Shown here: piece by piece, positions 22,264 through 58,201 of the stretch
Numbering within the stretch: the first letter of the stretch is position 1
Layout: every line of letters starts with the position of its first letter
Origin: an uncultured virus (IMG/VR IMGVR_UViG_3300035204_001483)
Taxonomy: Duplodnaviria > Heunggongvirae > Uroviricota > Caudoviricetes
IMG/VR virus record: IMGVR_UViG_3300035204_001483
DNA: 64,000 nucleotides
Direction: 5' to 3' (one strand)
Notes under the pieces: model-generated
The model's database searches: none
Told to the model about the DNA's origin: nothing
The model's input: the letters and a program-made list of their open reading frames with translations, nothing else
Program-made: the position numbers and the translations under genes

Positions 22264-23205
22264 TTAAAGCTTCTTCGTGTCGTAAGCTAGTTGAAGGTCT
22301 ACTTGCCTATAATAACAGTTCGAAAAGAAAATTCTTTTGATAATTCTAGAGGACTCCTCCCTGTCTTTAACAAACAAAAACTGTATGTGAGGATACTTTT
22401 GAATCAATTCTCTAACATTTCTAAATATAAACTCCGGCGTTACTCTTATTTTTTTTGAGATGTAAGGTAGATACCGAAAAGAAAGCGCATTGTTAAGCGT
22501 ATCTTCCACAAGTATAACTAAATAAGCGTCTAACTCTTTCGCTCTCAAGATTTCCCTTTCGAACCTGTCAAAATGTTTGACGCTTAAAGTGGAAATAAAA
22601 TCAGATAATGACTTTCTTTCTATATAGCAGTCACAAGTAATATCCGAATCGCTTAAACTGTAGTCGCCAATCTTTAGACCTTTGAGCTCAGTGGGCCAGT
22701 CCAACTCTAAGGGCAGTTGCTCTCTGGTGTCAACGTATATTTTATAGTCATCCTTGCTATAAGCTGCGCCCGTGACAAATTCTCCAGCGGTTCGGTATTT
22801 GTTTTTGAATTTTAATTTTTCGCAAAGCTGATAATAGTCTCCAAATAAAAGATCGTAATAATGAACAGGCGGGAGCATCAACGTTCTCAGTTCGACCTGT
22901 GTTGGAGCGTAAACAAGGTTCTTAGCGATTTTTCTCGCTTTAAGGAGGTCTATGCAGTACTTTTTAGAATCTTCTTCAGGAGCCTCTTTAAGCCATCTTT
23001 TTAAATTCGTGCGAGAATTAAAGTCGCTGGAAAAATATTGCTTTTTGTTTTTAAATTTTATAAGCTTACCGTCATACATGTCACGCCTTGGGTGACATTG
23101 TTGATAATATTCAGCCATACGAAGCTTGTGAGCCTTCAAGTGCTTATGAAGGCTCGTATCGTTGCTAAACTCTTTTTCGCATATCTGGCAAATAGATTTA
23201 TCCAT
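22264..23205 (-). CDS. C2H2 zinc finger plus ERCC4/XPF-type nuclease
   Basis: CQIC..HLKAH at N-terminus; VDTREQ, GDYSL and IERKSLSDF ERCC4 motifs. Confidence 0.8.
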   Translation of the reverse strand: MDKSICQICEKEFSNDTSLHKHLKAHKLRMAEYYQQCHPRRDMYDGKLIKFKNKKQYFSSDFNSRTNLKRWLKEAPEEDSKKYCIDLLKARKIAKNLVYAPTQVELRTLMLPPVHYYDLLFGDYYQLCEKLKFKNKYRTAGEFVTGAAYSKDDYKIYVDTREQLPLELDWPTELKGLKIGDYSLSDSDITCDCYIERKSLSDFISTLSVKHFDRFEREILRAKELDAYLVILVEDTLNNALSFRYLPYISKKIRVTPEFIFRNVRELIQKYPHIQFLFVKDREESSRIIKRIFFSNCYYRQVDLQLAYDTKKL

Positions 23206-31821: not shown

Positions 31822-32028
31822 ATGAACGAACAATTACCACATTACTCACTAAGGTATGTTACATCTAAAGGTGAAGAAAAAGACTACAAAATCAGTCGCC
31901 CTTTTGACTTGTTAAAAGACGACAAAGGTCTAAACGTGGGCATCGTTGCTTATTGTTACGGCAAAGGCATACGCTCTTTTCGACACGAACGAATTCTAAA
32001 AATGGAACCGACAAAAATTCGTCTTTAA
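31822..32028 (+). CDS. Small WYL/Sm-like-fold protein
   Basis: LRYVTSKGE..AYC..IRSFRHERI resembles the WYL R(S/T)FR..RI motif. Confidence 0.5.
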   Translation: MNEQLPHYSLRYVTSKGEEKDYKISRPFDLLKDDKGLNVGIVAYCYGKGIRSFRHERILKMEPTKIRL

Positions 32029-32404
32029 TGCGACTGAAAGGTTTGGTCTCGGGGAGACTGAAAAATACCTCCCCCCCCTCGCCTCACGAATTCAATTTGA
32101 TCCGTTATTCGAAAAATAGGGCGGGCCTATTAAAATCGCAAAAAAATCGCCTAGTTCGGGAGCATGGAAGCTAAAATGAAGAGCCAGAAGGTGCCGCAGA
32201 CGATATTCCATAATGTAATGTCTTTTTTCATGTGTTTTTCTTTAAGTTTGCCACTTCGTAGAGCGCAAACCGACTAAACGGATCGGTCAAGCGAAAAAAT
32301 AGACCTTTTTTACACGAAAAGGCTTCTGAAAGCCGCAGCGGCGTTCCTAACCCCTAAAAAAAGTGTTGACAGGTCGGTATTTAGTCGATTATCCTATTCG
32401 GGAG

Positions 32405-32626
32405 ATGAAAAAACCTACTCGTTACCAAATCGGATGCCTGTATAAGGTCAAAGACCCTGATTCGCTCTGCGGTTATCAAATCGGACGTGCGAAAAGCGTA
32501 GAAAATGATGTGTGGACGCTCGAATCTTACGACGGTTCGACTTTTACCGTTCCCGCGAGTAAACTCCGCGTGGCAAAGAAGAAACAAATGAAGGAATTCA
32601 ATATAGTACGCACAGCGTACGCCTAA
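32405..32626 (+). CDS. Early cassette protein
   Basis: MKKPTRY.. starts just after the promoter; the track start lies inside the promoter. Confidence 0.7.
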   Translation: MKKPTRYQIGCLYKVKDPDSLCGYQIGRAKSVENDVWTLESYDGSTFTVPASKLRVAKKKQMKEFNIVRTAYA

Positions 32627-32729
32627 AAGCGTCGCTTCCGACCCAAAAGGGGTTACGGAAACCGCTGCGGTCTTCCAAACCCCTAAAAAAAGTGTTGACA
32701 GACTGATATTTTGGCTCTAGGATTCTCCC

Positions 32730-32939
32730 ATGAGTGAAACCTACGAACCTAATTCAGAAACCCCACTTAGCGCGAGCCTTGACGCGAAGCTTGACGCCGA
32801 ATTCGACGCCAGCACCATAAACTTGTTTAAAGCGCAAGTGGATGTGCTCGCTGACGAACATTTCACCGTCATCGATGAACTCTGTTACGAGGAAAACGAA
32901 AACGAAGACAGCTTCATGGATGGGCTCCGTGAAGAGTAA
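32730..32939 (+). CDS. Acidic MSETY-family early peptide
   Basis: Leaderless start; LDAK..EFDAST(I/L)NLF shared with 33636..33824. Confidence 0.75.
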   Translation: MSETYEPNSETPLSASLDAKLDAEFDASTINLFKAQVDVLADEHFTVIDELCYEENENEDSFMDGLREE

Positions 32940-33031
32940 TAACACATAAGGGGTTCGTCACCCCGCTGCGCGTTTCGTAACCCCTAAAATAATGCTTGAC
33001 GAATCGATATTTCCAAGCTACTATTTTCCCC

Positions 33032-33192
33032 AGTTAAGCGATGGCTGACTGGTTCCCGCCTAGAATTATCGCGGCACCGCCCCTCGTATGTCGTCGGGTG
33101 TAGATGCGAAAAAGTGCCTTAAGAACGCGGCCCAACATCGCTTTGGCTTCGCCTTCCCTAATGGTGGCGGTTCGACTCCGTGAGAACCATTA
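33032..33192 (+). ncRNA. Putative structured ncRNA occupying one cassette
   Basis: Promoter 32996/33019 with AGT instead of ATG at the usual start. Stems AAGCGATG/CATCGCTT, GGCAC/GTGCC, TAATGGT/ACCATTA; T-loop GGTTCGACTCC at 33169-33179. Confidence 0.5.
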
Positions 33193-33275
33193 AGGGGTAG
33201 CGCGAAGCGCAGCGGCTTTTCGAACCCCTAAAATGATGCTTGACAAATTGGTATTTGACAAGTATTATTCTCTAC

Positions 33276-33347
33276 ATGGAACCGATAGCAGGAATCCTAT
33301 TCGCGTACGTTATGACTCGCCTCGTGTATGGGTCTTTTAACAACTAA
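33276..33347 (+). CDS. 23-aa hydrophobic peptide MEPIAGILFAYVMTRLVYGSFNN
   Basis: Leaderless ATG after TTGACA-17-TATTAT. Confidence 0.55.
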   Translation: MEPIAGILFAYVMTRLVYGSFNN

Positions 33348-33362
33348 AAAAACCTACTAAAT

Positions 33363-33461
33363 ATGAAAAAAATTAATTGGGATATGTTTCTCGCAGCCTT
33401 TCAAACTGGCTTTATTCTTACCGCACTAGGCTTTGCCTTAATCGCCTTAGCATTAACGTAG
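33363..33461 (+). CDS. 32-aa membrane peptide MKKINWDMFLAAFQTGFILTALGFALIALALT
   Basis: Follows AAACCTACTAA box; one TM-like segment. Confidence 0.55.
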   Translation: MKKINWDMFLAAFQTGFILTALGFALIALALT

Positions 33462-33635
33462 TCCGTACTGCGTAATTTTTTTGAAATGAAAAAAAAGTTA
33501 CCCCCCTCCCCCCCTGTCGAATAAATACGGGGGGGATACGGGGGAGTAGCATAAGGGGTCACTGAAGCCGCAGCGCGTTTCGTAACCCCTAAAATAATTC
33601 TTGACGGATGGGTATTTATGCCGTAAGTTTCTCCC

Positions 33636-33824
33636 ATGAGTGAAACCTACGACCACCATAATCCTAACCTGGACGCCAAGTGTGACTTGGAGTTCGACGC
33701 CAGCACCCTCAACCTGTTTGAAGAGACCATCCAAGTGATGACTCTCGAAGGTGTGGAAGAAACCCCCGACGAACTCGAAGTAGTGCCATTCCGTCATTAC
33801 TACGATGAGCTTTTTGATGAATAG
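33636..33824 (+). CDS. Acidic MSETY-family early peptide
   Basis: Leaderless start; paralog of 32730..32939. Confidence 0.75.
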   Translation: MSETYDHHNPNLDAKCDLEFDASTLNLFEETIQVMTLEGVEETPDELEVVPFRHYYDELFDE

Positions 33825-33927
33825 CTAACACGCTCCAGACCCGAAGGGGTCACTGGGGCCGCTGCGCGTTTCGTAACCCCTAAAATAATGCTTGACGAAT
33901 CGATATTTCAGCCGTACTATTTCCCCA

Positions 33928-34194
33928 ATGAATGACCTACTGTTCAACCTTGTCCGTTTCTTTGTTCGCCGCTCTCAAGTCCTGCGCCCTGTGGTGCGTG
34001 CAGTCATGCCGCATGAGTGGCAGTGGTCTTTCAGTAGCTGGGTCTTTAGCCGTTCTCATGGCCCTGCCCACAGGTGGCCCAACTCTCGTTGGGTTAACCT
34101 CGTGTGCCACCGCCTTTACTGGCTCACCAATCTCAGGGGCGAAGACCCCACATATGGGTGGTGGTGGCGAGCTAAACGACGATTAGGTTTTTAA
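33928..34194 (+). CDS. Trp/Arg-rich early cassette protein
   Basis: Leaderless ATG; the stop codon overlaps the next element. Confidence 0.65.
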   Translation: MNDLLFNLVRFFVRRSQVLRPVVRAVMPHEWQWSFSSWVFSRSHGPAHRWPNSRWVNLVCHRLYWLTNLRGEDPTYGWWWRAKRRLGF

Positions 34195-34276
34195 GGGGTT
34201 AGTCACCCCGCTGCGCGTTTCGTAACCCCTAAAATAATGCTTGACGAATCGATATTTAAGCCGTACTATTCTCCCA

Positions 34277-34378
34277 ATGAACGACGACTTCAGAGATATT
34301 TACTTTGTTCTTATTGTCGGTATCGTATCATTTGTGGTGATACTAGCAACGGGCATTTACATCGAATCTATATCATGA
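34277..34378 (+). CDS. 33-aa membrane peptide MNDDFRDIYFVLIVGIVSFVVILATGIYIESIS
   Basis: Leaderless ATG; ATGA-coupled to 34375. Confidence 0.6.
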   Translation: MNDDFRDIYFVLIVGIVSFVVILATGIYIESIS

Positions 34379-34539
34379 AAAATAAAAACCTAACACGTAA
34401 AGAAATCCAGCAACTCAACGAACAAGATGCTAAAGTTAAGTGGTATCTTGAATTAACCATTGCGGCGTGCTTGGGTGCGGCCCTTGCTTTGAGCTTTGTA
34501 GTAGCTCACTGTATGCTCACCACTGAATGGACTTGGTAA
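34375..34539 (+). CDS. 54-aa membrane peptide
   Basis: ATGA overlap; TM-like C-terminal segment. Confidence 0.6.
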   Translation: MKNKNLTRKEIQQLNEQDAKVKWYLELTIAACLGAALALSFVVAHCMLTTEWTW

Positions 34540-34630
34540 AAGTGTGAAAGGGGTTCGCCACCCCGCTGCGCGTTTCGTAACCCCTACGATTCTGCTTGAC
34601 GGATCGATATTTAAGCCGTACTATTTCCCC

Positions 34631-34891
34631 ATGAGCAAGGTCAGAATGAACGTAGTTGGAACCACTAGGGAAATGAACATGGCAGCAGCCCAGTGCTGTG
34701 AGACATTCAATAAAGCCGTTATGAAATTTCGGGCTTTACAGTACGCTAATGACATGGGTACGGGCGGGCCTGATTTTGATGAATTAGAGAAATTCTTTAT
34801 CGAAAAGCAAGGATTATACGATTACCTAGAAAAGGGGTTCAATGTAGCGTGTGCCTCTGACCAAGAGGCTGGAGTAATCCCAAAGAAATAA
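34631..34891 (+). CDS. Early cassette protein
   Basis: Leaderless ATG; the stop codon overlaps the next element. Confidence 0.7.
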   Translation: MSKVRMNVVGTTREMNMAAAQCCETFNKAVMKFRALQYANDMGTGGPDFDELEKFFIEKQGLYDYLEKGFNVACASDQEAGVIPKK

Positions 34892-34972
34892 GGGGTTCAT
34901 AACCCCGCTGCGCGTTTCGTAACCCCTACGATTCTTCTTGACGAATCGATATTTAAGCCGTACTATTTCCCT

Positions 34973-35119
34973 ATGAGTATTGACCCTTATAGCGAGATGA
35001 CCTCCGAAGACCACGACGACATGTGTGCATGGTTCGATGACATGCGGCTCGATGAGCCTGTGTGTGATGATCCTGGTCTCCGGTGCAACTGTGAAGACTA
35101 CCCATGCTGTGGTCACTAA
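34973..35119 (+). CDS. 48-aa acidic peptide ending RCNCEDYPCCGH
   Basis: Leaderless ATG; paralog of 36388..36540; not in the ORF track. Confidence 0.75.
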   Translation: MSIDPYSEMTSEDHDDMCAWFDDMRLDEPVCDDPGLRCNCEDYPCCGH

Positions 35120-35178
35120 AGGGGTTCGCCACCCCGCAGCGGCCCCCGCAACCCCTTTGGGTTACGAGGACGCTGTGC

Positions 35179-35478
35179 CTACTGTATTTGTAATTGAGAA
35201 GGCGGGTTTGTAGCTAACCCCACTGGCAGCGGTGGCAATGGCGGAAGGCTCATTTTTACCGTTTGAGGGATAGGGGGAGCAATCGGAATCGCTACCACAC
35301 GAGCCTCTTCAAAAGAGAGTCGGAGGATAGGCATCGCAGCCTTGATTTGATAAAGGCGATAGGCTTCAGCCTTCGCCTTCTCATGAGTCACGCCCAATTT
35401 TTTTTGGGCTTTGATGTGGTTGGTTACTTGCGCGGCCTTGACCGCGTTACGAGCTTGATAAGTTTTGTAGGTCTTCAT
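35179..35478 (-). CDS. Early cassette protein with Pro-rich tail (inverted cassette)
   Basis: Minus promoter TTGACA (35517)-17-TACATT; start MKTYKTY. Confidence 0.65.
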   Translation of the reverse strand: MKTYKTYQARNAVKAAQVTNHIKAQKKLGVTHEKAKAEAYRLYQIKAAMPILRLSFEEARVVAIPIAPPIPQTVKMSLPPLPPLPVGLATNPPSQLQIQ

Positions 35479-35584
35479 TACGAGAAAGAATGTACAAGAA
35501 AAAGAGTTAACTGTCAAGGGAATTCGTAAGCCGCAGCGGCCCCTGCAACCCCTTCGGGTCGCAAGGGTGAGATGATATTTACAC

Positions 35585-35968
35585 TTAACAAGGGTCATAT
35601 TCTGGCACGCCCGCCTCCTGGACTTCCTCACTAAACGAACGGTCATTGCCTACGATTTCGCGAATTTCCTTTTCCACAAACGCCCGAAAGCCTTTATCCT
35701 GGTCGCAGTAACTCCATTCAATCTGCCCCAGGTCTATCCACTTGCCGCCCATGTTGGCTGAAACGTTAAAATGAAAAATGCTTATATCCTCAATTGCAAT
35801 GTCGGTCAATTCCATACCGACCCGATGGGTGGCTGGCCCTTGCGGCCCCTCATAATCGAAATCGCCATTTTCCCAGCAAGGGTCATATTCAAGCTCTCCA
35901 AAAACATACAAGAAGGTTGAATCGTTCAGCTTGATTTCTACATCCTCGAATTGATAGGTGTCACTCAT
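35585..35968 (-). CDS. Acidic early cassette protein (inverted cassette)
   Basis: TTGACA-17-TACCTT, leaderless MSDTY start. Confidence 0.7.
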   Translation of the reverse strand: MSDTYQFEDVEIKLNDSTFLYVFGELEYDPCWENGDFDYEGPQGPATHRVGMELTDIAIEDISIFHFNVSANMGGKWIDLGQIEWSYCDQDKGFRAFVEKEIREIVGNDRSFSEEVQEAGVPEYDPC

Positions 35969-36085
35969 GGGAATAAGGTACACGAACCCTGTGACGTTGT
36001 CAAGGGGTTTCTTAGGCCGCTGCGCGTTTCGTAACCCCTAAAAAAGTGCTTGACGGATGGGTATTTGGGCAGTACTATTTTCCCC

Positions 36086-36301
36086 ATGAGTGAAACCTAC
36101 AACGACCCTAATTCCAACCTCGACCCCCAAAGCTCTGATGATCGCCTTGCCAAAATCGGCTCAGAGGAGTATTACGATGAGAAGCCTGATTTCTCCTCAT
36201 CTACAATAGCCTATGATGGCTTTGAAGGCTGCTGGCCTGGTGACGGGTCTGGCATGGATGACCTAGCAGACTTTAATCAGATGGAGGGCGACGACTATTA
36301 A
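36086..36301 (+). CDS. Acidic MSETY-start early peptide
   Basis: Leaderless ATG; PNSNLD resembles 33636. Confidence 0.7.
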   Translation: MSETYNDPNSNLDPQSSDDRLAKIGSEEYYDEKPDFSSSTIAYDGFEGCWPGDGSGMDDLADFNQMEGDDY

Positions 36302-36387
36302 CATAAGGGGTTCGTCACCCCGCTGCGCGTTTCGTAACCCCTACGATTCTGCTTGACGGATCGATATTTAAGCCGTACTATTTCCCC

Positions 36388-36540
36388 ATGAGTAAAGACC
36401 CTTATAGTGAAATGACCGACCAAGACCATGCCGAAATGAGCGAATGGTTTGATGAAAGAGAGCAAGCTTTTTGGGATGATGGTGGCCCAGATAACTACTC
36501 ACGTTGCAACTGCGAAGACTACCCGTGCTGTGGTCACTAA
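36388..36540 (+). CDS. 50-aa acidic peptide ending RCNCEDYPCCGH
   Basis: Leaderless ATG; paralog of 34973..35119. Confidence 0.75.
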   Translation: MSKDPYSEMTDQDHAEMSEWFDEREQAFWDDGGPDNYSRCNCEDYPCCGH

Positions 36541-36624
36541 AGGGGTTCGCCACCCCGCTGCGAGTTTCGTGGTCCCTAAAGTAGGGCTTGACAAACCGAT
36601 ATTTAGAGCGTACTATTTCCCTAC

Positions 36625-36903
36625 ATGAAACCTAGAAACATAATCAGCAACGATGGGACAGGCCCATGCGCCGAAGGCGAGCCTTTCACCGTGCATCAAC
36701 ATATCATCACTAAAAACCATTGGGAGTATTATCTAGAAGAGACAGACAGTTGCGGCTTGTCCTTTGGCTATGTGATGGGCAACGAAAACGAATGGGGCAT
36801 GGTAGACATGGAAGAGATTGAGCCTCACGTCATAGGTAGAGCAAGGGAAAATGACTTGTGGCACATCATGCCACCTGAAGGCTATCGTTGGGAAGATGAA
36901 TAA
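36625..36903 (+). CDS. DUF2958-like early protein
   Basis: WEYYLEE..FGYVMGNENEWGMVDMEEI pattern. Confidence 0.55.
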   Translation: MKPRNIISNDGTGPCAEGEPFTVHQHIITKNHWEYYLEETDSCGLSFGYVMGNENEWGMVDMEEIEPHVIGRARENDLWHIMPPEGYRWEDE

Positions 36904-36984
36904 GGGGTTTGCCACCCCGCTGCGCGTTTCGTGACCCCTACTAATACGCTTGACAAACCGATATTTATATCATACTATTTCCCC

Positions 36985-37269
36985 ATGGAAGGCGAGAAAT
37001 TCTTACTTTACTCTAATAGGAAAACCAATAGGCACGTTTTCACTTACATTAACCCTGAAGGCAAGGAGCACACCATTGATTCTGACGTGCTGACTGAAAC
37101 GTATGGTGAAGATTGGAAATGGAAGCTTTCGGGTCATCACGCTATTGTTCGGGCTGCTCACAATGATGTTGTAGATCAAGAATCATGGGATGAACTACTT
37201 CGCATCCCGTGGATGAAAGTTAATGAAATGTGGGACAAAGACGAACCACCACCGTGGATGAAGGAGTAA
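36985..37269 (+). CDS. Early cassette protein
   Basis: Leaderless ATG; the stop codon overlaps the next element. Confidence 0.65.
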   Translation: MEGEKFLLYSNRKTNRHVFTYINPEGKEHTIDSDVLTETYGEDWKWKLSGHHAIVRAAHNDVVDQESWDELLRIPWMKVNEMWDKDEPPPWMKE

Positions 37270-37331
37270 GGGGTTACTAACCCCGCTGCCGCTTCCGCAA
37301 CCCTTTCGGGTTACAGGAACGAGGCCGTATT

Positions 37332-37715
37332 TTACCACCAACAACTGTAAACTATAGTCCAGCCCTCAGACATAGCTTTTCTAGCCTTCTGAACGAACTC
37401 AAGGTCGCTATCCTTGTAGCCGTATTCCCCTTCGTAATCTTCATAACTATCATTCCCAAAGAAGAAACCTCCCGTTTCTGGTAGCTCCCTATCTAGGATG
37501 GTTTGCTCTAGGCTCTCCAAATCTTCTTCGTCGATACGCACATCAACAAGGTTGAATTCTCCTGAGCCACCCTTGCTGCGCCAGAGCTCTTCCATCCACC
37601 CTTGCAAACGATTGTGTTTGCGCCAGTAGTGAAGCTCCGTCTTAGTGGTGGTTTCGGTGCGTGAATCTGAATTGTAATCAGACTTTACTTTGTAAGCGTT
37701 TTGATCGAGTCCCAT
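37332..37715 (-). CDS. Conserved phage hypothetical protein
   Basis: MGLDQ..YWRKHNRLQGWM..GFFFG..YSCWW, a common phage family pattern. Confidence 0.7.
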   Translation of the reverse strand: MGLDQNAYKVKSDYNSDSRTETTTKTELHYWRKHNRLQGWMEELWRSKGGSGEFNLVDVRIDEEDLESLEQTILDRELPETGGFFFGNDSYEDYEGEYGYKDSDLEFVQKARKAMSEGWTIVYSCWW

Positions 37716-37813
37716 AATATTCTCCGTGGTTGTAGGTTTAACTAATGAAGATTAAAACATTTTTAAGTCTGATTGTCAAGGGAATTCGTAAACCGCTGCG
37801 GCTTCCCGCACCC

Positions 37814-38257
37814 CTACCTTGGGGGAACCAATGCCCAACACTCATGACCAACAAAGCAACGAGGTGAATTAAAAATTGGTTCTTCGTATTTCATCGTAAC
37901 AAACGTCTTATATTTATAAGGGTCGTATGTAATTCGCTCATAAACCCAATCTGCGTGTTCAGGCAAGTTAGCCATCGACTGCATATCCTTTAGCATCTTC
38001 TTCGGGCTTACCATTGGGGTTAAAGACAGAGGCGGTTGCTTTGTCCATGTGAGCCAATTGCCACGCACTACCGCATGAACGTTCTTACGCTTCTCATCAC
38101 GCACACGCTGATTGCCCTTTTCTCCAACAGCAAACTCAGCTTCTTGAATAATGATTCCGTGAACGTGTTTGCATACGAGTCTATCATGAGTGGTTCGCAC
38201 TGAGTAAACAATGCCTTCATGATGTAGGTTTCTGTAGACTTCAACTCTGCTTTTCAT
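37814..38257 (-). CDS. Conserved phage hypothetical protein
   Basis: VYRNLH..RVRDEKRKNVHA..YDPYK pattern. Confidence 0.7.
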   Translation of the reverse strand: MKSRVEVYRNLHHEGIVYSVRTTHDRLVCKHVHGIIIQEAEFAVGEKGNQRVRDEKRKNVHAVVRGNWLTWTKQPPLSLTPMVSPKKMLKDMQSMANLPEHADWVYERITYDPYKYKTFVTMKYEEPIFNSPRCFVGHECWALVPPR

Positions 38258-38259
38258 AA

Positions 38260-38709
38260 TTACTCCGAAAGTGAAATTTCGTGATCTGATTCAGGGATGT
38301 TTACCTTTAAGATGTTTTCTTCCCACCTCTGGTTTTCGAGCATTTCAGTAAGAGCTTTCGCTACATCTTTTTCAGTAACGTGAGACAAATCCTCTTTGGG
38401 TGCGTTACCCAATACCTCTTCCCACGGGACATTGATACGCCACCCGATTGGTAAACACTCATGCCATACACTTGCCACCGTAGGACGCAAAATAGAAACG
38501 TAGTCACCCACCATCATTGAGCGGACTTCGAGCTTCTTAAACAAGTCACACTCTTTACCACTCCCGTTATTCCAACCCTCCCACACTGCATCGAGAATAT
38601 CATGGTCTGTGTACTTGTAACCTACCGAATTTTCTTCTGGGTAGTCCAACCAGAACTTTTTACATTGCTTCTCGGTCATGTCCCGATATTGGATATTAAC
38701 TCTGATCAT
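38260..38709 (-). CDS. YodL-like protein
   Basis: RSMMVGDYV motif; start re-placed after the AAGGAGG SD. Confidence 0.5.
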   Translation of the reverse strand: MIRVNIQYRDMTEKQCKKFWLDYPEENSVGYKYTDHDILDAVWEGWNNGSGKECDLFKKLEVRSMMVGDYVSILRPTVASVWHECLPIGWRINVPWEEVLGNAPKEDLSHVTEKDVAKALTEMLENQRWEENILKVNIPESDHEISLSE

Positions 38710-38818
38710 GTTCCTCCTTATGCTTAGGTTTACGGACGTAAGAGCCTTTGCCCTTCTTAACTCGGTGAACGCGAGAGGCACTGTTCATGTATCCTTCCTT
38801 ACTTTTCCTCGCCTTCAT
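38696..38818 (-). CDS. ArfA-like peptide (40 aa)
   Basis: MKARKSKEGYMNSASRVHRVKKGKGSYVRKPKHKEEHDQS contains the ArfA KKGKGSYxRKxKH motif; leaderless after TTGACA-17-TACTTT. Confidence 0.7.
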   Translation of the reverse strand: MKARKSKEGYMNSASRVHRVKKGKGSYVRKPKHKEEHDQS

Positions 38819-38914
38819 GTGGATAAAGTACACGAAAAAAGTCTAACTGTCAAGGGAATTCGTAAGCCGCAGCGGCTCCCGCAACCCCTTCGGGCTGCGA
38901 GAGTAGGGGGTTAT

Positions 38915-39169
38915 TTAATAACCTCGCCTCCCATTTGGGTTAGCCTTATCATACTGAGGCTTAAGGCTTGAAGGTAAGGTATTAAGGATCGAATATATCT
39001 CATTCAAACGATCATGTGTCTGTTGAAGCAAGCCAACCGTAGACCTAAATCTCTTGACGCTATCTTCCGTTAGGTTAATCCCGTTAATTAGGTTCTCCAT
39101 CTGATCAGAAAGATCAGAGGCTTGTTTGGTTAGTTCGATTACGTCTGTTGTAGGTTTCTTTTCGCTCAT
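38915..39169 (-). CDS. Coiled-coil early protein
   Basis: Own promoter TTGACG-17-TAGTAT. Confidence 0.65.
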   Translation of the reverse strand: MSEKKPTTDVIELTKQASDLSDQMENLINGINLTEDSVKRFRSTVGLLQQTHDRLNEIYSILNTLPSSLKPQYDKANPNGRRGY

Positions 39170-39240
39170 AACAAATAAGATACTACCCCAAAACTAAAAG
39201 CCCGTCAACAACAAAAGGGGATGCGTAAACCGCAGCCGCT

Positions 39241-39265
39241 CCCGTAACCCCTTCGGGGTTACGGG
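39241..39265. terminator. Hairpin on the right arm of the element at 3' ends of minus-strand cassettes (terminator or processing candidate)
   Basis: CCCGTAACCCC-TTC-GGGGTTACGGG; related hairpins near 35147, 35544, 37297, 38880. No clear U-tract. Confidence 0.5.
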
Positions 39266-39282
39266 TGGGGGGAGGGGGTTAT

Positions 39283-40182
39283 TTAGTTCAGGGTCACGTC
39301 GGATTCGGTCACTACCGTGTCAGTCGGAACCGCGACAACAAGCCTATTTAACTTGTCAGAGTTTTCCGCAGCACCGCGCAACCGCCGCAGGACGTTGGTG
39401 CTAACGGTGTTGGCGTACTCGAAACGGTTGGGGCTAACCTCATGGGTGAGGTGTTGAGTGGCTGCATTGTAGAGCGTCCACAAGTTGCGAGCCTCGTCCT
39501 CCTCATGGGTTGGGTTTTCCCAAATCTTAAGGATGCCATCCTTCACCACGTTAGACAGTACCTTGGACTTGTTCAACTGGTTGAGGATGTTGCGGCCCTG
39601 CTCCTGCGAGATGTCACGCTCGCCCAATACGCTGAAGCCTTGCGCGGCTTTGTGGAAACTTCCGGTAGCCTTGTCGAGAGCATCCCCGATGAAACCGATT
39701 TCCACGTTACTGCTATGCTTGCGAGTCATGCCAAACTCTTTTTCCATTGTGGTCATGCCGTTAAGGCAAACCAACCGCACCATGCCAAGCGCGAAGGATA
39801 CGCGCAGGGAACGGTCAAAAGAGTTTTGCAAGGTAAGACGCATTCCCATCTCCATGCCCTTGGTGCGATCCTCGCGCCGTGTAGCAATAGCCGTTTCATT
39901 CTCGAAGTCGTACTGCGCGAACATACGTTCACCGCGACCCGCCACGACAACCTGACGATTGGTTGGAGTCATCCCGCGAGACTCGAAAGCTTCCTCTGCA
40001 TTACCGATTAAATCGGCATTCTGTACAAAGCCGTACTGCTCCGTACCCCAGCCAAGCTCCTCGCCCGTGTCAGTGCGAACGTGCGCGTACACGCGAGATT
40101 TTTTGTTGGTAGTGGACACGGTGAGCGGAACACGCTCTACAGTGAAGTCGAAATCGGAGGTTTGAATAGTGTTTCTGGCCAT
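39283..40182 (-). CDS. DUF932-family protein
   Basis: Y..VQN, LQNSFDRS, RLVCLNG, KH, NLWTLYNAATQHLTH. Confidence 0.8.
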   Translation of the reverse strand: MARNTIQTSDFDFTVERVPLTVSTTNKKSRVYAHVRTDTGEELGWGTEQYGFVQNADLIGNAEEAFESRGMTPTNRQVVVAGRGERMFAQYDFENETAIATRREDRTKGMEMGMRLTLQNSFDRSLRVSFALGMVRLVCLNGMTTMEKEFGMTRKHSSNVEIGFIGDALDKATGSFHKAAQGFSVLGERDISQEQGRNILNQLNKSKVLSNVVKDGILKIWENPTHEEDEARNLWTLYNAATQHLTHEVSPNRFEYANTVSTNVLRRLRGAAENSDKLNRLVVAVPTDTVVTESDVTLN

Positions 40183-40635
40183 GATTAGGTTTTCTTTCTT
40201 GGGTTTAGGGTTCGTCTAACTGGTAAAGATTAAACCATATATCGGATTAAGTGTCAAACCTTTTTTCACCTCACTGGATAGATTCTTTTCCCCCCCCCTA
40301 ACCCCTTGCGAAGCAAGGGGTTGCGTAGGCCGCTGCGGCCTCACGAGCCCCTATACAATGAGACTTAACCCAATGCCCTTAATTGTTAGAGTTATTTAAC
40401 TATATTTAATTTGCCAAAAATTGCTGTATTTCACTGTTATTCTACCCCAGAGTTTCTTATATAAGGGGGATTTCTCCGATGAGAAAATGGGGGTATTTAA
40501 GAAATTGCGTTGGTTAGAATGATTACGGGCAATATGCCTTTCCGAAAACTCCTCCCGCTTAACTTCTAGAGAGCAAAATGATAAAACCTCTCTAGCTAAT
40601 AAGCATCATTCTTTACGATGCCAACGCTCACCGTT

Positions 40636-40860
40636 TTATGATGGAGTGTCTGTAGGCAAATTTTCCTCGACGATTTCCAGCTTCGCAACCGTATTTCCGT
40701 TTGCGTCTTGAGCGGTAACAAAGTCACCAACATCAACAGCCATTATGCGTCCCGCGTTATCAACAAGGCGTTCTAGTACATTTTGTATTTCAAACAGACG
40801 CTCTGAAGGATTGTTGCCAAAAGCGTCATTGCCTAGTTCGATTTCGATTTTCGCTTTCAT
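40636..40860 (-). CDS. Conserved phage hypothetical protein
   Basis: IEIELGNDAF..DANGNTV pattern; leaderless promoter at 40896. Confidence 0.65.
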   Translation of the reverse strand: MKAKIEIELGNDAFGNNPSERLFEIQNVLERLVDNAGRIMAVDVGDFVTAQDANGNTVAKLEIVEENLPTDTPS

Positions 40861-40885
40861 TGGGTATAACCTAACACACGAAACG

Positions 40886-41134
40886 CTAGTTGTCAAGAGG
40901 TTTCTTATGTCTTTCAACTACGTCTGCTACCTGCTCGCCCTTCTCGTAGTCAGGTAGCTTAACAACGTACATGGAGTCTCTATCTCTTAACGTATAATTG
41001 TATTCCGTGTGTTTTAATGTCACACTATTCCTTCCACCAGACAGACGCGCAGATTGAATAGCCTCCTCCTCAGAGTTAGCGTCTACGATATAAGTAGATG
41101 ACCACATTTCAGTTGTTATTACTTTATACTTCAT
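40886..41134 (-). CDS. DpnD/PcfM-like small protein
   Basis: YKV..IVDANSEEEAI. Confidence 0.5.
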   Translation of the reverse strand: MKYKVITTEMWSSTYIVDANSEEEAIQSARLSGGRNSVTLKHTEYNYTLRDRDSMYVVKLPDYEKGEQVADVVERHKKPLDN

Positions 41135-41137
41135 AAT

Positions 41138-41296
41138 TTAATCCTCGTAGATTTCCTTGTAGCGTTCTTCAATGTCTGCGTCAGGCATCTGATTGAACCC
41201 CAAGACTCCATCCATTAACATCTCACGAATGTCTCTATCTCCAACCTGTTCAAATACAGATTCCATTAAGCGTTCTCTTTTTTCGTCAATAGTCAT
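41138..41296 (-). CDS. 52-aa acidic hypothetical protein
   Basis: Read by hand; fills the gap in the operon. Confidence 0.55.
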   Translation of the reverse strand: MTIDEKRERLMESVFEQVGDRDIREMLMDGVLGFNQMPDADIEERYKEIYED

Positions 41297-41299
41297 AAT

Positions 41300-41476
41300 T
41301 TAATGCTCCAATACGTCAAACTTTGTTTCGTCGTCTAGGGTATAAGCATACTCTGTGTCTTTCCCGTAATCGCCTTCACCATTTTTAGCGGCAGCAATCG
41401 CTTCATTCTTATTCTCCGCTTCCACCACAACGTATTGCCAATGGACTTCGGGTATTCTAACTGTGAATGTTTTCAT
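41300..41476 (-). CDS. DpnD/PcfM-like small protein (58 aa)
   Basis: MKTFTVRIPEVHWQYVVVEAENKNEAI; read by hand. Confidence 0.55.
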   Translation of the reverse strand: MKTFTVRIPEVHWQYVVVEAENKNEAIAAAKNGEGDYGKDTEYAYTLDDETKFDVLEH

Positions 41477-41653
41477 TTAGTCCTCCAATTTCTTAAAGTT
41501 GTCTACTACGATTTGGCAGAGAGCATCCGCGTTTTCCTTATAACCTCCAGCGGCTTCTACATAGCAGATGATGTCCTCCTGCATTTGTTCTCTTACCTCC
41601 GCAAACTTTTCGGGGTAAACCTTCTTGTATCCTCCTCTGTGTATAATTTTCAT
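41477..41653 (-). CDS. Hypothetical protein
   Basis: MKIIHRGG..LCQIVVDNFKKL; packed in the operon. Confidence 0.55.
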   Translation of the reverse strand: MKIIHRGGYKKVYPEKFAEVREQMQEDIICYVEAAGGYKENADALCQIVVDNFKKLED

Positions 41654-41655
41654 AC

Positions 41656-41859
41656 TTAAATCCAATCTTGCTTTGAGTCTCCGCTGATACCATGCCTCTG
41701 GCATAAATCGTCCCACTCCATACTGTTATAGGTTGAGTTGCGAGATTGAGTATCAACCACCATTTCTTTTAGATGGTTTGTGAGTTCGCCTATGTCCTCG
41801 AATTGAATTCTGACGTACTTATCGGTAGATTGCCTTGGAGGTTTTCTTGTAGGTTTCAT
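41656..41859 (-). CDS. Early protein
   Basis: Leaderless MKPTRKP after TTGACA-17-TATAGT. Confidence 0.6.
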   Translation of the reverse strand: MKPTRKPPRQSTDKYVRIQFEDIGELTNHLKEMVVDTQSRNSTYNSMEWDDLCQRHGISGDSKQDWI

Positions 41860-41941
41860 GTAAAGACTATAGCCCACATTGGACTTTGTGTCAAGGACAA
41901 AAGGGGTTAAGGAAAACGCAGCGGCCTCATCATCCCCATTG

Positions 41942-42505
41942 CTACGGGCGTTTACGTGTCAGAGTTATTTTGCACTTATTGCATCGGTATGTGCGCCCCT
42001 TCTTCATCCTGTTATGAATTGTCGTGGATATAGTATGAGAAGGATTCGGACACCCGCAGTAATATTTCCATCGTTTCTGTTTCTTTCCTCCCGCATTCGT
42101 CGTATCATAATTGTGACACCTATTCGGTTTCAGACCGAGATGACGCATTACTTTTTTCCAATCGCGTCCGTGGGCGGTAGGCTTTTCAATTCTTCTTAGA
42201 CTATAGAGTTTGTCCGTCAAGATGTGTGCAAACTCGTGGCCGACTGTTTGCTTTATGAAATGCTCCACGTTTTCTTTTAGCAAAACGTAATTTATTTCAA
42301 TGATATTTCTATAGCTGTTCGCGGTTCCTGCCCTATTTCCTTTTAGACTATAACGTAGATCGGGCGGTTCCATTGTTATTCCCCAATGCTTTTCGGCATA
42401 GTCATGTAGTTCTCCAATTCTATCTTCGCAACGCGCTTGCAATTCTGCGGTGGTGGGAACAAGTAAACCCGACTCTTTTTTTTCGAATGATTCTATTATT
42501 ATCAT
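41942..42505 (-). CDS. SprT-like zinc metalloprotease
   Basis: RAGTA, HEFAH, HGRDWK, YYCGC..YRCNKC. Confidence 0.88.
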   Translation of the reverse strand: MIIIESFEKKESGLLVPTTAELQARCEDRIGELHDYAEKHWGITMEPPDLRYSLKGNRAGTANSYRNIIEINYVLLKENVEHFIKQTVGHEFAHILTDKLYSLRRIEKPTAHGRDWKKVMRHLGLKPNRCHNYDTTNAGGKKQKRWKYYCGCPNPSHTISTTIHNRMKKGRTYRCNKCKITLTRKRP

Positions 42506-42575
42506 TTTCTTTTTTTGGGGTTTCTTATGGCGTCAACGAGAATGTAAAGTAGTAAAAAGGTTACTATCGCAGACA

Positions 42576-43367
42576 CTAAGCCACCTCCATTTCTTTGCGT
42601 TTGCTGTACCCGTTCCAGCCTCTGCGTTTTAGTTCTTGAATTGCTTGGCTTGCTGCGCTGCCCTTTGGCTGTGTGCCATGAATGAGTAGAGCAAAATTCT
42701 TTTTTCCAAATGCTGCATGGTAATCATCATGGTCAATCTCAAAACCCATTGCGTCGGCTTCTTCTTCACTATAAACAACCTCGGCATACTTTAGACCATG
42801 CTCCACAATAAGCGCGTCATGCTTGCCGCCGAAAGATGCGGTCAGTACAAAGTTTGAAGGAATAGAATCAAAACGATGTACCCAAAAGTTCAAGCTCTTT
42901 GTGTACGCATAAAAATGCTTGTTGGGGTTACGTCGTGCAACTTCCATCCACGCATCAAAATAAACCTGTGAAAAGAAATCACCACCCACATGGACACGCA
43001 TGATGTCAAACTTTTTGGGAAGCATCGACTCTAGTAAATCGGCAACCTCTTTTGCCTGATTCTTTTTGTATCGCCATGCGTTGAGGAGAACGTTTTTGAT
43101 AGCCTCAAAATTACGCCACACCATTGCGCGTGTGTTTTTATACTGTGATTCGCTACTCGCCGCAAAGCAACGAAATGCTGTGTGTGGGCCGTCTGTAATC
43201 TTGCCCGTTGTCCTGTCCGCTTTAGACAAGCAATCTTTTGCTGCTGGACACGTCCACCCGCTAGGGAGGGTGAAAGATTTAATAGTTAAACCGAGCCGCT
43301 TCGCCATCGCAATTAACTTTGCGTTAGCTTGGGAAAAGGTTAGAGCTTGGGGTTGTGTAGGTTTCAT
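42576..43367 (-). CDS. Phage gp88-like protein
   Basis: SFTLPSGWTCP..C..CFA, RVHVGGDFFS, FYAYTKS. Confidence 0.7.
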   Translation of the reverse strand: MKPTQPQALTFSQANAKLIAMAKRLGLTIKSFTLPSGWTCPAAKDCLSKADRTTGKITDGPHTAFRCFAASSESQYKNTRAMVWRNFEAIKNVLLNAWRYKKNQAKEVADLLESMLPKKFDIMRVHVGGDFFSQVYFDAWMEVARRNPNKHFYAYTKSLNFWVHRFDSIPSNFVLTASFGGKHDALIVEHGLKYAEVVYSEEEADAMGFEIDHDDYHAAFGKKNFALLIHGTQPKGSAASQAIQELKRRGWNGYSKRKEMEVA

Positions 43368-43406
43368 GATGTAAATATAGCAGGTTTTACTTAGGTTGTC
43401 AAGTCT

Positions 43407-43853
43407 TTACTGAAAGTTGTAAAATCTTTCGCTGGTTTGTTTCCACTCTTCTTCATCGTTCCACACGCCACCAGTTTTCATAGTGCCATGCCCACACATT
43501 TCGCTACTGAGGGAAAGCCGGTAAGCTCCCCCATGCTGCACGGAAATAAACGTTTCGTGAATCATGTTGTTGAATCTAAGTCGCGCAAGTAAGCCAGCGT
43601 AACGTCTGACCTTTTCTCTTAGCGTGTTTCCGTGCTTGCCTAAGAAGTAAGCAAGGGAGGAGTTATAAAAGTAATTCCTTATGTCTTCCTCCGTTGTCCA
43701 GATGTAAGCAAACCTTTCAGACATATAATTCAACTCACCGTTGTACGCTCCGTGGTTGTACCAACTGTAATCCTGTGAAATGATTTTTTGGGGGTCGTCC
43801 GATTCGATACCGACTGCCCAACTGTTTCCGAGTGGTTGATAGAATAGCTTCAT
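43407..43853 (-). CDS. Early hypothetical protein
   Basis: Leaderless ATG after the promoter next to the last element. Confidence 0.65.
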   Translation of the reverse strand: MKLFYQPLGNSWAVGIESDDPQKIISQDYSWYNHGAYNGELNYMSERFAYIWTTEEDIRNYFYNSSLAYFLGKHGNTLREKVRRYAGLLARLRFNNMIHETFISVQHGGAYRLSLSSEMCGHGTMKTGGVWNDEEEWKQTSERFYNFQ

Positions 43854-43972
43854 TGGGACTTAAGGTACACTAATATAACCTACGTGTCAAGAGCAAAAAG
43901 GGGTTAAGAAGGCCGCAGCGATTTTCGCAAGCCTTATCCCGAGTTAAGGTCAAAACTCTTTATTTGATATAT

Positions 43973-44317
43973 TTAGAAGTCAAAAAATTCTATTATTTGA
44001 TCACTGTTTATTTTCCAGTGCATGAAGCTTATTATTTGAGAAGTAGATGGTATTTGAGGATCGCCAAACCCATATTGGTATCCCCCTATTACCATTGAGT
44101 CTAGTTGTGCGCCGATATCAGTTTCATCTATACCGACACTGAGGGTGCGAGAAAAATATCTTACATATATTATTTTGTGTTTTGTTTCTGCTCTCCACTC
44201 ACAACTTTTTTCAGTAATTGTACCTGCTAATATATATATCTTTCTATACCCGCCAAACCTTTTGAGAACAGAGGGGGTGACAACCCTTTGCAGTCCAGAT
44301 TCTCCAGATAAGTCCAT
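43973..44317 (-). CDS. Hypothetical protein
   Basis: 114-aa ORF. Confidence 0.5.
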   Translation of the reverse strand: MDLSGESGLQRVVTPSVLKRFGGYRKIYILAGTITEKSCEWRAETKHKIIYVRYFSRTLSVGIDETDIGAQLDSMVIGGYQYGFGDPQIPSTSQIISFMHWKINSDQIIEFFDF

Positions 44318-44323
44318 GTTATA

Positions 44324-45289
44324 TTATACATGAGTTTTATCTAGTTCTACTAGGTAGTTACGCCCTTTTTGAGTGATGTTCCTGCCTTTAGTTGTGATCT
44401 CCATGAGGTCGTGACTCTGAAGAAACAATTCGTAATCACACCGTAAGGATTGAACAGTCAACTTTACTTTTGTGCCGAGTTTAGTGAGCGAAACATCTCG
44501 ACAGTCACGTAATACTCGCAGCACCCTCACCTCTTTCGGGCGTAAACCTAAAGGAGTAATGCCTAGAGTGCCAGTTAACGCTTTCCAATCCTTACGGGTA
44601 AATTTAGAAAGTTTGCCGTTGGCATCTAAATACATCTGGATATTAATTGCCATCTTTTGGGCAGCGCGTGGGTTGCCACGCAACACAGAAGCGATTTCCT
44701 CTGGTAGTCCATCTTCAAATTCTACTTCACTTAAATTAAGTAAAATGATCTCCCCCAACTCCTCATGGCTGTAATCTTCAAGGTCAACTCTATCCAACCT
44801 ATCCATGAGAGCGTGAAATACCTTATGAGGTTCGCTCGTAGCAAATAAGAAAGTCTGACGACGAAAATCAAAATCAAACGTAAACTCATCCCAACTAAAA
44901 GAATTACGGTTTTGGGGATTAGGGTTAAGAATAGAGAGCATAACCATCTCAACATCTGGAGGAATCTCGCTCGCCTCATCAAAAAGAACGGTTACGTCCC
45001 TGTCGTGAACTTTAGGAATAATTAACTCATCAAAAAATGCTTTGGTATTCTTAATGGAAGCGCAATTAACTTCGCAATACTTTTTGGGTTTATCTTCTCC
45101 GCTTTTAACTAACTCTTTTGCTAGAGCTTTAGCTATAAGTGTTTTGCCGCACCCCTTTGACGCAGTAAACATCATGTTTGGAATCAATCCTGCTTTTTCG
45201 TAGGAATCAATATAGAAGTCTAACTTTCGTTTAGCTTGCGGTTGGCCTATAATGCCATCAAATCGTGAAGAGGTGTAGGTTTCGCTCAT
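44324..45289 (-). CDS. ruvB: RuvB-like Holliday junction AAA+ ATPase
   Basis: FDGIIGQ, GCGKT, LFDE, ALMDR, RGNPRAA, LGITPLGL, TTKGR: RuvB order of motifs and length. Confidence 0.78.
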   Translation of the reverse strand: MSETYTSSRFDGIIGQPQAKRKLDFYIDSYEKAGLIPNMMFTASKGCGKTLIAKALAKELVKSGEDKPKKYCEVNCASIKNTKAFFDELIIPKVHDRDVTVLFDEASEIPPDVEMVMLSILNPNPQNRNSFSWDEFTFDFDFRRQTFLFATSEPHKVFHALMDRLDRVDLEDYSHEELGEIILLNLSEVEFEDGLPEEIASVLRGNPRAAQKMAINIQMYLDANGKLSKFTRKDWKALTGTLGITPLGLRPKEVRVLRVLRDCRDVSLTKLGTKVKLTVQSLRCDYELFLQSHDLMEITTKGRNITQKGRNYLVELDKTHV

Positions 45290-57790: not shown

Positions 57791-58201
57791 TGGTGGAGGC
57801 GGTGGGAGTCGAACCCACGTCTTTAAAACCGTCTGCTCAGATATACTACAAGTTTAGTCGGTGACATACTTGTTAGTTGACCACCGACAGACTAACTAAC
57901 AAGGTTGGAGGCACTTTATTTATACTAGACTCCTCACCCTTCCTAGTTTTTTTTGCTCGCTATCGACGCCCTAGCTCCTTAACGAGCATCCAGAGTAGGA
58001 CGGGGTAGAACTAAGCTACCAGCGCAGCCTCTTCGGCCCAACCGAAACGAGCGAGAATCTCGTCTGCTTCAGCCAGTGAAGGAGCTACCATGTCAACGTC
58101 ATTGTTGGCATATATGTTTTTGATAGAATTTTTAAGAGGCCAACTATCATCCTCTACTTGCAATCTTGCGTAAGGCTCCAAATCGAAACCAGTACGCCCC
58201 C
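57791..58201 (-). ncRNA. ssrA: tmRNA
   Basis: 5' GGGGGCGTACTGGTTTCGA and 3' GACGTGGGTTCGACTCCCACCGCCTCCACCA; acceptor stem with G3.U; internal tag frame 58109-58011 (ANNDVD..AALVA). Confidence 0.93.

Follow-up and report, generated by a model that had tools for sequence, protein, structure and literature searches.

A repeated module of a 37-bp dyad and a sigma-70-type promoter punctuates an exchanged array of small, apparently leaderless genes in a large marine phage

T4-type phages carry promoter-early stem-loop (PeSL) cassettes, and the reports describing them relate that recombination between neighboring units yields mini-circles (PMC2839356; PMC4122927) and that crossovers were mapped to an AT-rich region and to the stretch between the Shine-Dalgarno (SD) sequence and the -10 element (PMC2839356). 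Here we analyze a 64,000-nucleotide stretch (hereafter the window) of an uncultured Caudoviricetes virus (IMG/VR record IMGVR_UViG_3300035204_001483), in which an array of mostly small gene cassettes at 32319-43935 is punctuated by a symmetric 37-bp dyad, AGGGGTT-N8-CGCWGCG-N8-AACCCCT, that commonly stands beside a sigma-70-type promoter. A first-pass annotation of this DNA had set PeSL aside as a comparator; the repeated unit nevertheless has most of the defining features of PeSL. A strong sigma-70-type promoter closely follows the dyad across an AT-rich linker, the unit recurs among functionally uncharacterized small genes of a hyperplastic region, close relatives differ at the units by indels, replacements and one displacement (six events against the related record G001, with two joints seen again in sequencing run X6), and crossovers fall at differing places in the unit. 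By contrast, the 3' end of a PeSL unit holds an SD sequence and a start codon, whereas here there is no SD sequence and the genes look leaderless, and the dyad itself is tripartite, with a conserved center, unpaired N8 spacers, a fixed length and mostly no U-tract. Nor is membership of the T4-type phages established: identity is about 25% between its terminase and those of Bacillus phages and 24-29% between its rIIA and those of various phages, these comparisons revealed no close T4-like relative and no nearby isolate, and the window yielded no T4 core virion gene.

Multi-copy sites in phage promoters and intergenic spaces are also known from cluster A mycobacteriophages such as L5, where, according to one report, more than 20 copies of a single protein-binding site (the stoperator) lie in promoters and short intergenic spaces, the bound repressor blocks both initiation and elongation, and the 13-bp sites are asymmetric, monomer-bound, orientation-dependent and part of temperate-phage immunity (PMC9283540). 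Judged against that description, the dyad shares the multi-copy placement, and the functional model that we favor for it is of the same kind; it differs in being a symmetric 37-bp element, with a central W that is A in 27 and T in 54 of 81 oriented sites, and in having no known repressor. In integrons, attC sites are of variable length, IntI recombines them at a single fixed point, and the cassettes mostly lack promoters and point one way. Like attC sites, the dyad is an imperfect inverted repeat at each cassette boundary, and cassette content varies between relatives; unlike them, it has a fixed length, variable crossover points, a promoter per cassette and cassettes in both orientations, with no integrase among the 65 window proteins scanned. 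The conserved inverted repeats (CIRs) of Streptomyces phage phiC31 are likewise highly conserved and present in many intergenic copies near early promoters; they are 17 bp long, belong to a temperate phage, have a known repressor and are not known to be linked to cassette shuffling.

With at most three mismatches allowed, the dyad pattern matches the window 22 times against none expected, all within the array: eight copies are perfect, five have one mismatch, seven have two and two have three. No match arose in 100 dinucleotide-preserving shuffles, and a tolerance of four mismatches added no further dyad in the window. Eight related records, namely the 29.6-kb viral record G001 (22 dyads) and seven metagenome contigs (L021-L027; 5-15 dyads each), bring the set to 109 dyads at up to four mismatches, about 87 of them in the relatives. 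A pattern-independent scan of the same records for GGGGT-N(10-40)-ACCCC, which imposes no geometry, returned 58 matches at a spacing of 25, one at 26 (an extra G inside the G-run of an L022 dyad) and five singles elsewhere, so that the 22 copies of fixed geometry reported at first pass are borne out. Dyad length varies in 1 of 59 cases, as against 10 of 74 for the linker between dyad and -35 (non-overlapping gaps other than 10 nt). Arms alone are not enriched outside full dyads (three and five seen, about 2.3 expected per strand), which rules out the arm as an independent unit. Avoidance of restriction sites was also considered and dropped, GCWGC not being avoided in the window.

The dyad matched no Rfam family, with only four weak, chance-level matches at E<=5 over 32000-44500, and a tRNA scan found nothing within the array. 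A megablast search with the array found no match among 50,697 phage records; the exact dyad pattern is absent from 185,579 prokaryote species (one genome each) and in IMG/VR occurs in the G001 contig only. Among the titles and abstracts listed for phage papers that contain both arm sequences, we found no description of such a dyad, and a literature search on leaderless early promoters and hyperplastic regions, likewise judged from listed titles and abstracts, yielded nothing on this phage lineage. We conclude that the array is genuine, far from random and coherent in biological terms.

Dyads occupy tandem junctions, convergent junctions without a promoter (35120, 37269) and a divergent junction with a promoter on each side (36003), and cassettes use both strands, as first described. 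In at least nine cassettes the dyad starts at the stop codon or one base past it; the stop codons noticed earlier do overlap dyads at 34194, 34891, 36903 and 37269 and abut them at 35119 and 36540. The claim that nearly every cassette boundary carries a dyad is accurate for the small cassettes; it fails in the larger right-hand ones, where internal promoters with TTGAC at 43402 and 40896 have none.

The dyad is joined to a sigma-70-type promoter (consensus cTTGAC-17-TAnnnT) either through a 10-nt A-rich linker or by overlap with the -35 element. On the plus strand the module reads dyad, linker (AAAATAATGC or AAAAAAAGTG), TTGAC, a 17-nt spacer with a conserved TATTT, a -10 element such as TACTAT, 6-8 nt and ATG, and all 13 plus-strand array promoters begin 10 nt past a dyad. 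Minus-strand modules fall into an overlap class, in which the last dyad base is the first T of TTGACA (sites at 35517, 36003, 37779 and 38853), and a spaced class with a short T-run between dyad and promoter (39216, 41902, 43899); the linker is TTTTGNNC in three minus-strand units. Across all records, 92 dyad-to-promoter gaps measure 10 nt (64), -1 (18), 7-9 (9) or 11 nt (1).

This regularity bears on the first-pass proposal that the dyad is an operator co-regulating all early promoters, and on a pure operator or activator site, where a bound regulator would switch them on or off together and have no boundary role. Dyad symmetry, rigid geometry and the fixed position relative to the -35, with two main classes 11 bp apart or about one helical turn, speak for such a regulator, and 8 of 105 dyads have a promoter on both sides. 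However, a fixed spacing can be inherited by copying of the whole module. Moreover, TTGAC lies within 18 nt of the dyad in 84 of the 105 sites and on neither side in 21, including the convergent junctions at 35120 and 37269, which offer no promoter to regulate. Conversely, six same-type leaderless promoters (TTGAC at 45324, 46048, 43402, 40896, 56329 and 60869), one of them preceding the clamp-loader gene, have no dyad. We therefore consider a pure operator quite improbable, and co-regulation of all early promoters is not supported as proposed.

Between 32000 and 61000, an ATG follows the -10 element by 4-10 nt in 24 of 29 matches to TTGAC-N17-19-TAnnnT, and by 6-7 nt in 18 of those 24. Standard sigma-70 geometry places the transcription start at or beside such an ATG. 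An ATG 6-8 nt past the -10 thus makes the mRNAs look leaderless, and the 6-7 nt distance in 18 of 24 promoter-gene pairs leaves no space for an SD sequence.

Several further features of the promoters and gene starts were recorded. The apparently leaderless layout is general in the window (promoters at 32366-61000) and covers genes beyond the array, such as the clamp loader (44324-45289). Ribosome-binding sites of the ordinary GGAG type precede some other genes, among them rIIB (50701) and the gene at 37715. Array-promoter spacers hold a conserved G(A/G)TATTT 5 nt after TTGAC (e.g., 32996-33024 and 34241-34269), which is kept in the distant L022 lineage; its reading as a T4 MotA box or late promoter was dropped, as the spacings differ from the consensus. 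Genes starting at 25395 (-), 44317 (-) and 60902 (+) are preceded by what may be a second class of promoter, in which TGTATAAT or GTGTAATAA stands 5-7 nt ahead of the ATG and a -35 is not apparent; these genes again would be leaderless. The window also contains 18 copies of AAACCTAC against 2.8 expected (e.g., at 32411, 32737, 33643, 36093, 41856, 43364, 45282, 53557 and 53574). At least 12 of the 18 lie about -25 to +27 nt from a start codon on the coding strand, read in differing frames (MSETY..., MKPT..., MKKPT...), and two stand directly upstream of the rIIA ATG; the motif looks like a nucleotide-level translation signal.

To compare cassette order and content, we drew on assembled DNA, namely metagenome assemblies (the window is probably one as well), Logan contigs for sequencing runs and the 64-kb part of one genome that the window represents. 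G001 is collinear with window positions 19341-48625 at 91-99% identity. Within this frame, and with the cassettes numbered c1 to c21 from the left, c7 is displaced in G001 to between c12 and c13; c8, c9 and c18 are missing from it and found in L024 or L027; and it holds three cassettes absent from the window (X8, X14 and X16), of which X16 is common to L021. Cassette c16 is a replacement, 81% identical to its G001 counterpart while its neighbors are 98-99% identical. Per-cassette identities between the window and G001, L021, L024 and L027 run 99, 90-92, 99, 81, 98, 89, 93 and 99%, and in the distant L022 lineage c12 is 95% identical (L022 and L025) while other shared cassettes are 78-82% identical. 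All breakpoints against relatives fall at dyad or promoter units. Similarly, dyads are where contigs end in four seawater runs that come from different studies, and an independent contig from run X6 repeats the G001-like joints 34192->35119 and 38894->39267. An identical cassette order among relatives would speak against shuffling; order and content differ from G001, L021, L024 and L027, and shuffling therefore stands. As judged from these assembled sequences, related phages are shown to have gained, lost, moved and replaced cassettes at these modules. In viral contigs, clamp-loader relatives were found in G001 only, and the promoter-plus-ATG pattern occurs at 48 loci, with several matches per locus in the G001 contig alone and single matches that look like chance.

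Each rearranged junction was compared with its two parental junctions for the six events that separate the window from G001. Two crossovers lie in the left arm (the c6-c10 join, and the presence or absence of X16, where homology starts at GTAAGGGGTT), two in the center (presence or absence of X8 and of c18), one in the right arm (X14) and one in the promoter, downstream of TATTT (the c7 displacement, in which the G001 copy of c7 is flanked by a duplicated site and 5' promoter part). Four different places in six crossovers argue against a single-cut enzyme, and indicate exchange by homologous or microhomology recombination, or by template switching, between short conserved blocks.

The same map weighs on an integron-like system, in which a dedicated site-specific recombinase, with its gene beyond the window, would act on the dyad to cut cassettes out and put them in. 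Such a system would account for a dyad at every small-cassette boundary whatever the transcriptional context, for left and right halves that combine freely and for the two of six events that are half-site hybrids joined in the center; the 15 + 7 + 15 bp layout, moreover, presumably resembles the core sites of tyrosine recombinases. Yet four of the six crossovers lie outside the center, the conserved bases are the outer 7 bp rather than those beside the supposed crossover region, the cassettes have their own promoters and both orientations, and no recombinase is found among the 65 window proteins scanned against Pfam, as the first-pass annotation had also noted. We regard this explanation as very improbable. 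Of the earlier suggestion of a recombination site for shuffling, the gains, losses, displacement and replacement at the units are supported, and the dedicated site is not.

The dyad itself appears to be constrained as sequence. Across 43 orthologous junction pairs, which are not independent of one another, the arms show 0.5 changes per column and the center 0.3, as against 2.1 in the N8 spacers (4-7 times lower in arms and center). Over the 81 distinct oriented sites, Watson-Crick pairing of symmetric N8 positions ranges from 16 to 51%, which does not exceed the permuted controls, and one right N8 sequence combines with eight different left ones. Non-Watson-Crick arm cells (14 G-U, 13 A-C and 21 other, of 336) reveal neither compensation nor a G-U bias on the transcribed strand. 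The rigid spacing, conserved arms and center and unpaired N8 favor recognition of double-stranded DNA sequence and helical geometry over a pairing-only stem-loop, and the rigid tripartite dyad looks protein-read.

In a classical PeSL, the dyad would act solely as an RNA stem-loop, with the arms as stem and the rest as loop, serving as a bidirectional terminator or 3'-end stabilizer. According to one report, PeSL stem-loops terminate transcription (PMC2839356), and the position of dyads at or one base after stop codons, their presence at convergent gene ends without a promoter, good folds at 32648 (-17.8/-19.8 kcal/mol) and 40316 (-24.4 kcal/mol) and T-runs on the transcribed strand past 39216, 41902 and 43899 all fit this role. 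Predicted folds span -8 to -24.4 kcal/mol, however, and the commonest plus-strand type is weak (about -10 to -12.7 kcal/mol, z -1.2 to -1.6) and followed by an A-run rather than U. Only the three dyads with T-runs, of 22 in the window, combine a GC-rich hairpin with a U-tract as an intrinsic terminator would; canonical hairpin-plus-T-run terminators occur elsewhere in the window (e.g., 46666-46628 and 33456-33473). Full dyads are also kept between divergent promoters, where there is nothing to terminate (36003, and several in L022, L024 and L027), and a stem-loop leaves the invariant CGCWGCG center and the 58:1 spacing unexplained. On balance, an RNA-only role seems to us rather unlikely, if the strongest of the alternatives.

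Some RNA structure does appear to be under selection at the dyads. At minus-strand gene 3' ends the right arm is also the 5' strand of a tight extra hairpin with a UUCG- or UUUG-type loop (35150-35167, 35547-35564, 37299-37316, 38883-38900 and 39246-39264, with equivalents in L022 and L027). The partner strand covaries with the arm (GCAACC/GGTTGC, GTAACC/GGTTAC, GCTACC/GGTAGC), which is why we take structure to be selected there at the RNA level; it suggests a small hairpin that competes with the large dyad, and the hairpin explanation can claim this covariation in its favor.

We consider it probable that the repeated unit is a composite boundary module of the PeSL type, in which a 37-bp dyad is fused to a sigma-70-type promoter. 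Within this explanation, the 10-nt linker may act like an UP element, and transcription would begin at or next to the ATG to give leaderless mRNAs. Leaderless translation requires a 5'-terminal AUG. A leaderless gene therefore requires its own transcription start, from which we infer both the promoter provided for each small gene and a shielding from neighbors; read-through from the neighboring cassette would be useless or harmful to it. The dyad could provide this shield if a bound protein served as a roadblock, like a symmetric stoperator, and where the dyad overlaps a -35 the same protein would repress. Since dyads stand at tandem, convergent and divergent junctions, boundary function alone covers all three. 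For the proposal that the dyad bounds transcription in either orientation and is recognized in double-stranded form by a dimeric, probably phage-encoded protein, we find the balance about even. The hairpin potential of the dyad would be secondary, and crossovers would arise by homology between repeated modules, not through a one-point recombinase. A stronger version, in which a phage-encoded dimeric protein recognizing the dyad both insulates leaderless units and marks their boundaries so that exchange is favored there, strikes us as unlikely.

Several observations weigh against the composite boundary module or dilute its support. Dyads abut stop codons as terminators would, three minus-strand dyads have a T-run after them, and the extra right-arm hairpins likewise point to RNA. 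Sites were collected with the pattern itself (up to four mismatches), which inflates arm and center conservation, and copies that recombination has only recently spread would lack compensatory changes irrespective of their function. The mapped events number only six and come from two or three lineages, no dyad-binding protein was identified, and the proteins of the small cassettes have no Pfam family. Furthermore, the records are metagenome assemblies, in which repeats of about 100 bp can produce false joins; cassettes unique to one record and joints recurring in independent assemblies indicate that most events are not of that kind.

On this explanation, the array would be a regulatory cassette array of the PeSL kind that adds a leaderless form, a rigid tripartite dyad and a phage lineage apparently unrelated to the T4-type phages. 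Modular shuffling by repeated regulatory cassettes, so far a matter of T4-type phages, would thereby extend to an apparently unrelated marine lineage, with natural variants from several metagenomes documenting the exchanges, and the need of leaderless genes for their own start, hence for insulation, would offer a rationale for the layout of one promoter per gene. If a protein binds the dyad, the dyad would be a transcription boundary element of a new kind and would give access to the way phages retain and exchange early genes, whose role in host takeover or counter-defense is presumed only. Should that protein both insulate units and mark boundaries, the array would serve an undescribed lineage of marine phage as a counterpart of an integron platform, with early genes in cassettes that carry promoters.

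The left part of the array consists of small plus-strand cassettes, separated by tandem junctions unless stated otherwise and given here with the position of each promoter's TTGAC. Site 1 (32319-32355), the left array end, has its promoter 10 nt to the right; the two terminal dyads share a degenerate outer arm (AAGGCTT at 32319-32325, mirrored by AAGCCTT at 43929-43935) that faces out of the array and is also present in G001 and L026. Cassette c1 (32356-32647, +; promoter 32366) carries gene 32405-32626 (73 aa), and after site 2 (32648-32684), c2 (32685-32948, +; promoter 32695) carries the leaderless gene 32730-32939 (69 aa). Site 3 (32949-32985) opens c3 (32986-33192, +; promoter 32996), which has no ATG near its -10. 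The G001 and L026 copies match this cassette at 100%, as against 98-99% for the neighboring cassettes, and its 3' end has a T-arm-like GGTTCGACTCC hairpin; as a structured RNA it gave no tRNA or Rfam match and folds no better than shuffles (z 0.13). Site 4 (33193-33229) precedes c4 (33230-33553, +; promoter 33240), with open reading frames (ORFs) at 33276-33347 (23 aa) and 33363-33461 (32 aa) and the hairpin and T-run at 33456-33473. Beyond site 5 (33554-33590), c5 (33591-33844, +; promoter 33601) holds gene 33636-33824 (62 aa), and beyond site 6 (33845-33881), c6 (33882-34193, +; promoter 33892) holds gene 33928-34194 (88 aa), whose stop overlaps site 7 (34194-34230), where G001 joins c6 to c10. 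Cassette c7 (34231-34548, +; promoter 34241) has ORFs 34277-34378 (33 aa) and 34375-34539 (54 aa); site 8 (34549-34585) is followed by c8 (34586-34890, +; promoter 34596; gene 34631-34891, 86 aa; 95% identical in L024), and site 9 (34891-34927) by c9 (34928-35119, +; promoter 34938; gene 34973-35119, 48 aa).

At site 10 (35120-35156) the genes converge, and its right arm forms one of the small hairpins with 35157-35165. Cassette c10 (35157-35516, -; gene 35179-35478, 99 aa) takes its promoter from a -35 overlapping site 11 (35517-35553), whose left arm, AGGGAAT, contains the overlap and which joins parts of two G001 sites at a crossover in its center. Likewise, c11 (35554-36002, -; gene 35585-35968, 127 aa) has a promoter overlapping site 12 (36003-36039), the divergent junction. 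To its right lies c12 (36040-36305, +; promoter 36050; gene 36086-36301, 71 aa), followed by the tandem site 13 (36306-36342), duplicated in G001 where it flanks c7, and c13 (36343-36540, +; promoter 36353; gene 36388-36540, 50 aa). Site 14 (36541-36577) has three mismatches and the right arm GGTCCCT, and next to it stands c14 (36578-36902, +; promoter 36588; gene 36625-36903, 92 aa). Site 15 (36903-36939) is where G001 has the extra cassette X14, and c15 (36940-37268, +; promoter 36950; gene 36985-37269, 94 aa) ends at the convergent site 16 (37269-37305), where G001 and L021 have X16.

The remaining cassettes lie on the minus strand. Cassette c16 (37306-37778, -) encodes gene 37332-37715 (127 aa), with a leader and GGAG, and site 17 (37779-37815) overlaps two features, on one flank the -35 that serves c16 and on the other the stop codon of 37814-38257. 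In c17 (37816-38852, -), with genes 38260-38781 (173 aa) and 37814-38257 (147 aa), the promoter overlaps site 18 (38853-38889), which in G001 is merged with site 19 (39216-39252) into one hybrid site. Between them, c18 (38890-39215, -; promoter TTGACG at 39208; gene 38915-39169, 84 aa) is absent from G001 and the run X6 contig and present in L027 (89%). The minus-strand T-run follows site 19, whose right arm forms a GTAACCCC-TTCG-GGGTTAC hairpin. Cassette c19 (39253-40315, -) encodes gene 39283-40182 (299 aa), and site 20 (40316-40352), the best palindrome, is about 57 nt from the nearest -35. About six small ORFs (41656-41859 down to 40636-40860) make up c20 (40353-41901, -; promoter 41894), which includes the internal promoter at 40896. 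Site 21 (41902-41938) is followed by its T-run and then the promoter on the minus strand; in c21 (41939-43898, -), promoter 43890 serves 43407-43853 (148 aa) and the internal promoter 43402 the next two genes, 42576-43367 and 41942-42505 (both -). Site 22 (43899-43935) is the right array end. Long C- or G-runs such as CCCCCCTCCCCCCC and GGGTGGGGGGAGGGGG adjoin several dyads (33497-33545, 39255-39280, 40286-40300).

The duplicated paralogues seen at first pass are real: 34973-35119 and 36388-36540 (both ending ...CCGH) share 58% identity (E 2e-18), and 32730-32939 and 33636-33824 (both MSETY proteins) share 49% over 41 residues (E 9e-11); the c12 protein also begins MSETY and does not align with the latter pair. 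The 14 proteins encoded by the small cassettes (c1-c15) match no Pfam family at E<=0.05. The larger right-hand cassettes encode L5-gp82-like (37814-38257; Phage_L5_gp82, E 1e-24), GP88 (42576-43367; E 1.7e-40), DUF932 (39283-40182) and SprT-like (41942-42505) proteins. The Phage_L5_gp82 family is named after a mycobacteriophage L5 gene and, together with GP88 and the leaderless design, may hint at an actinobacterial-type host. G+C content in the array is 43-49% (47-49% over 32001-40000), as against 34-45% for most of its surroundings.

The window is part of a large marine phage, and encodes a tubulin homologue, a T4-type terminase N-domain, a sigma-like factor, PhoH, collagen-repeat fiber proteins, rIIA, rIIB, a clamp loader and an HNH/EndoVII-like nuclease. 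The tubulin/FtsZ-family protein lies at 13982-15154 (-; Pfam E 4.8e-9), and an ORF at 2-8299 (-), open at the window edge and longer than 2766 aa, has collagen repeats, a C1q domain and a CBM5/12 module and is probably a fiber. A phage-borne, one-piece transfer-messenger RNA at 57791-58201 (-; RF00023, 148.7 bits) is the only Rfam match in the window at gathering thresholds; its tag peptide, according to ARAGORN, is unusually long at 32 residues and ends in ALVA. An ERCC4-type nuclease with an N-terminal C2H2-like zinc finger (22264-23205, -) adjoins the terminase gene.

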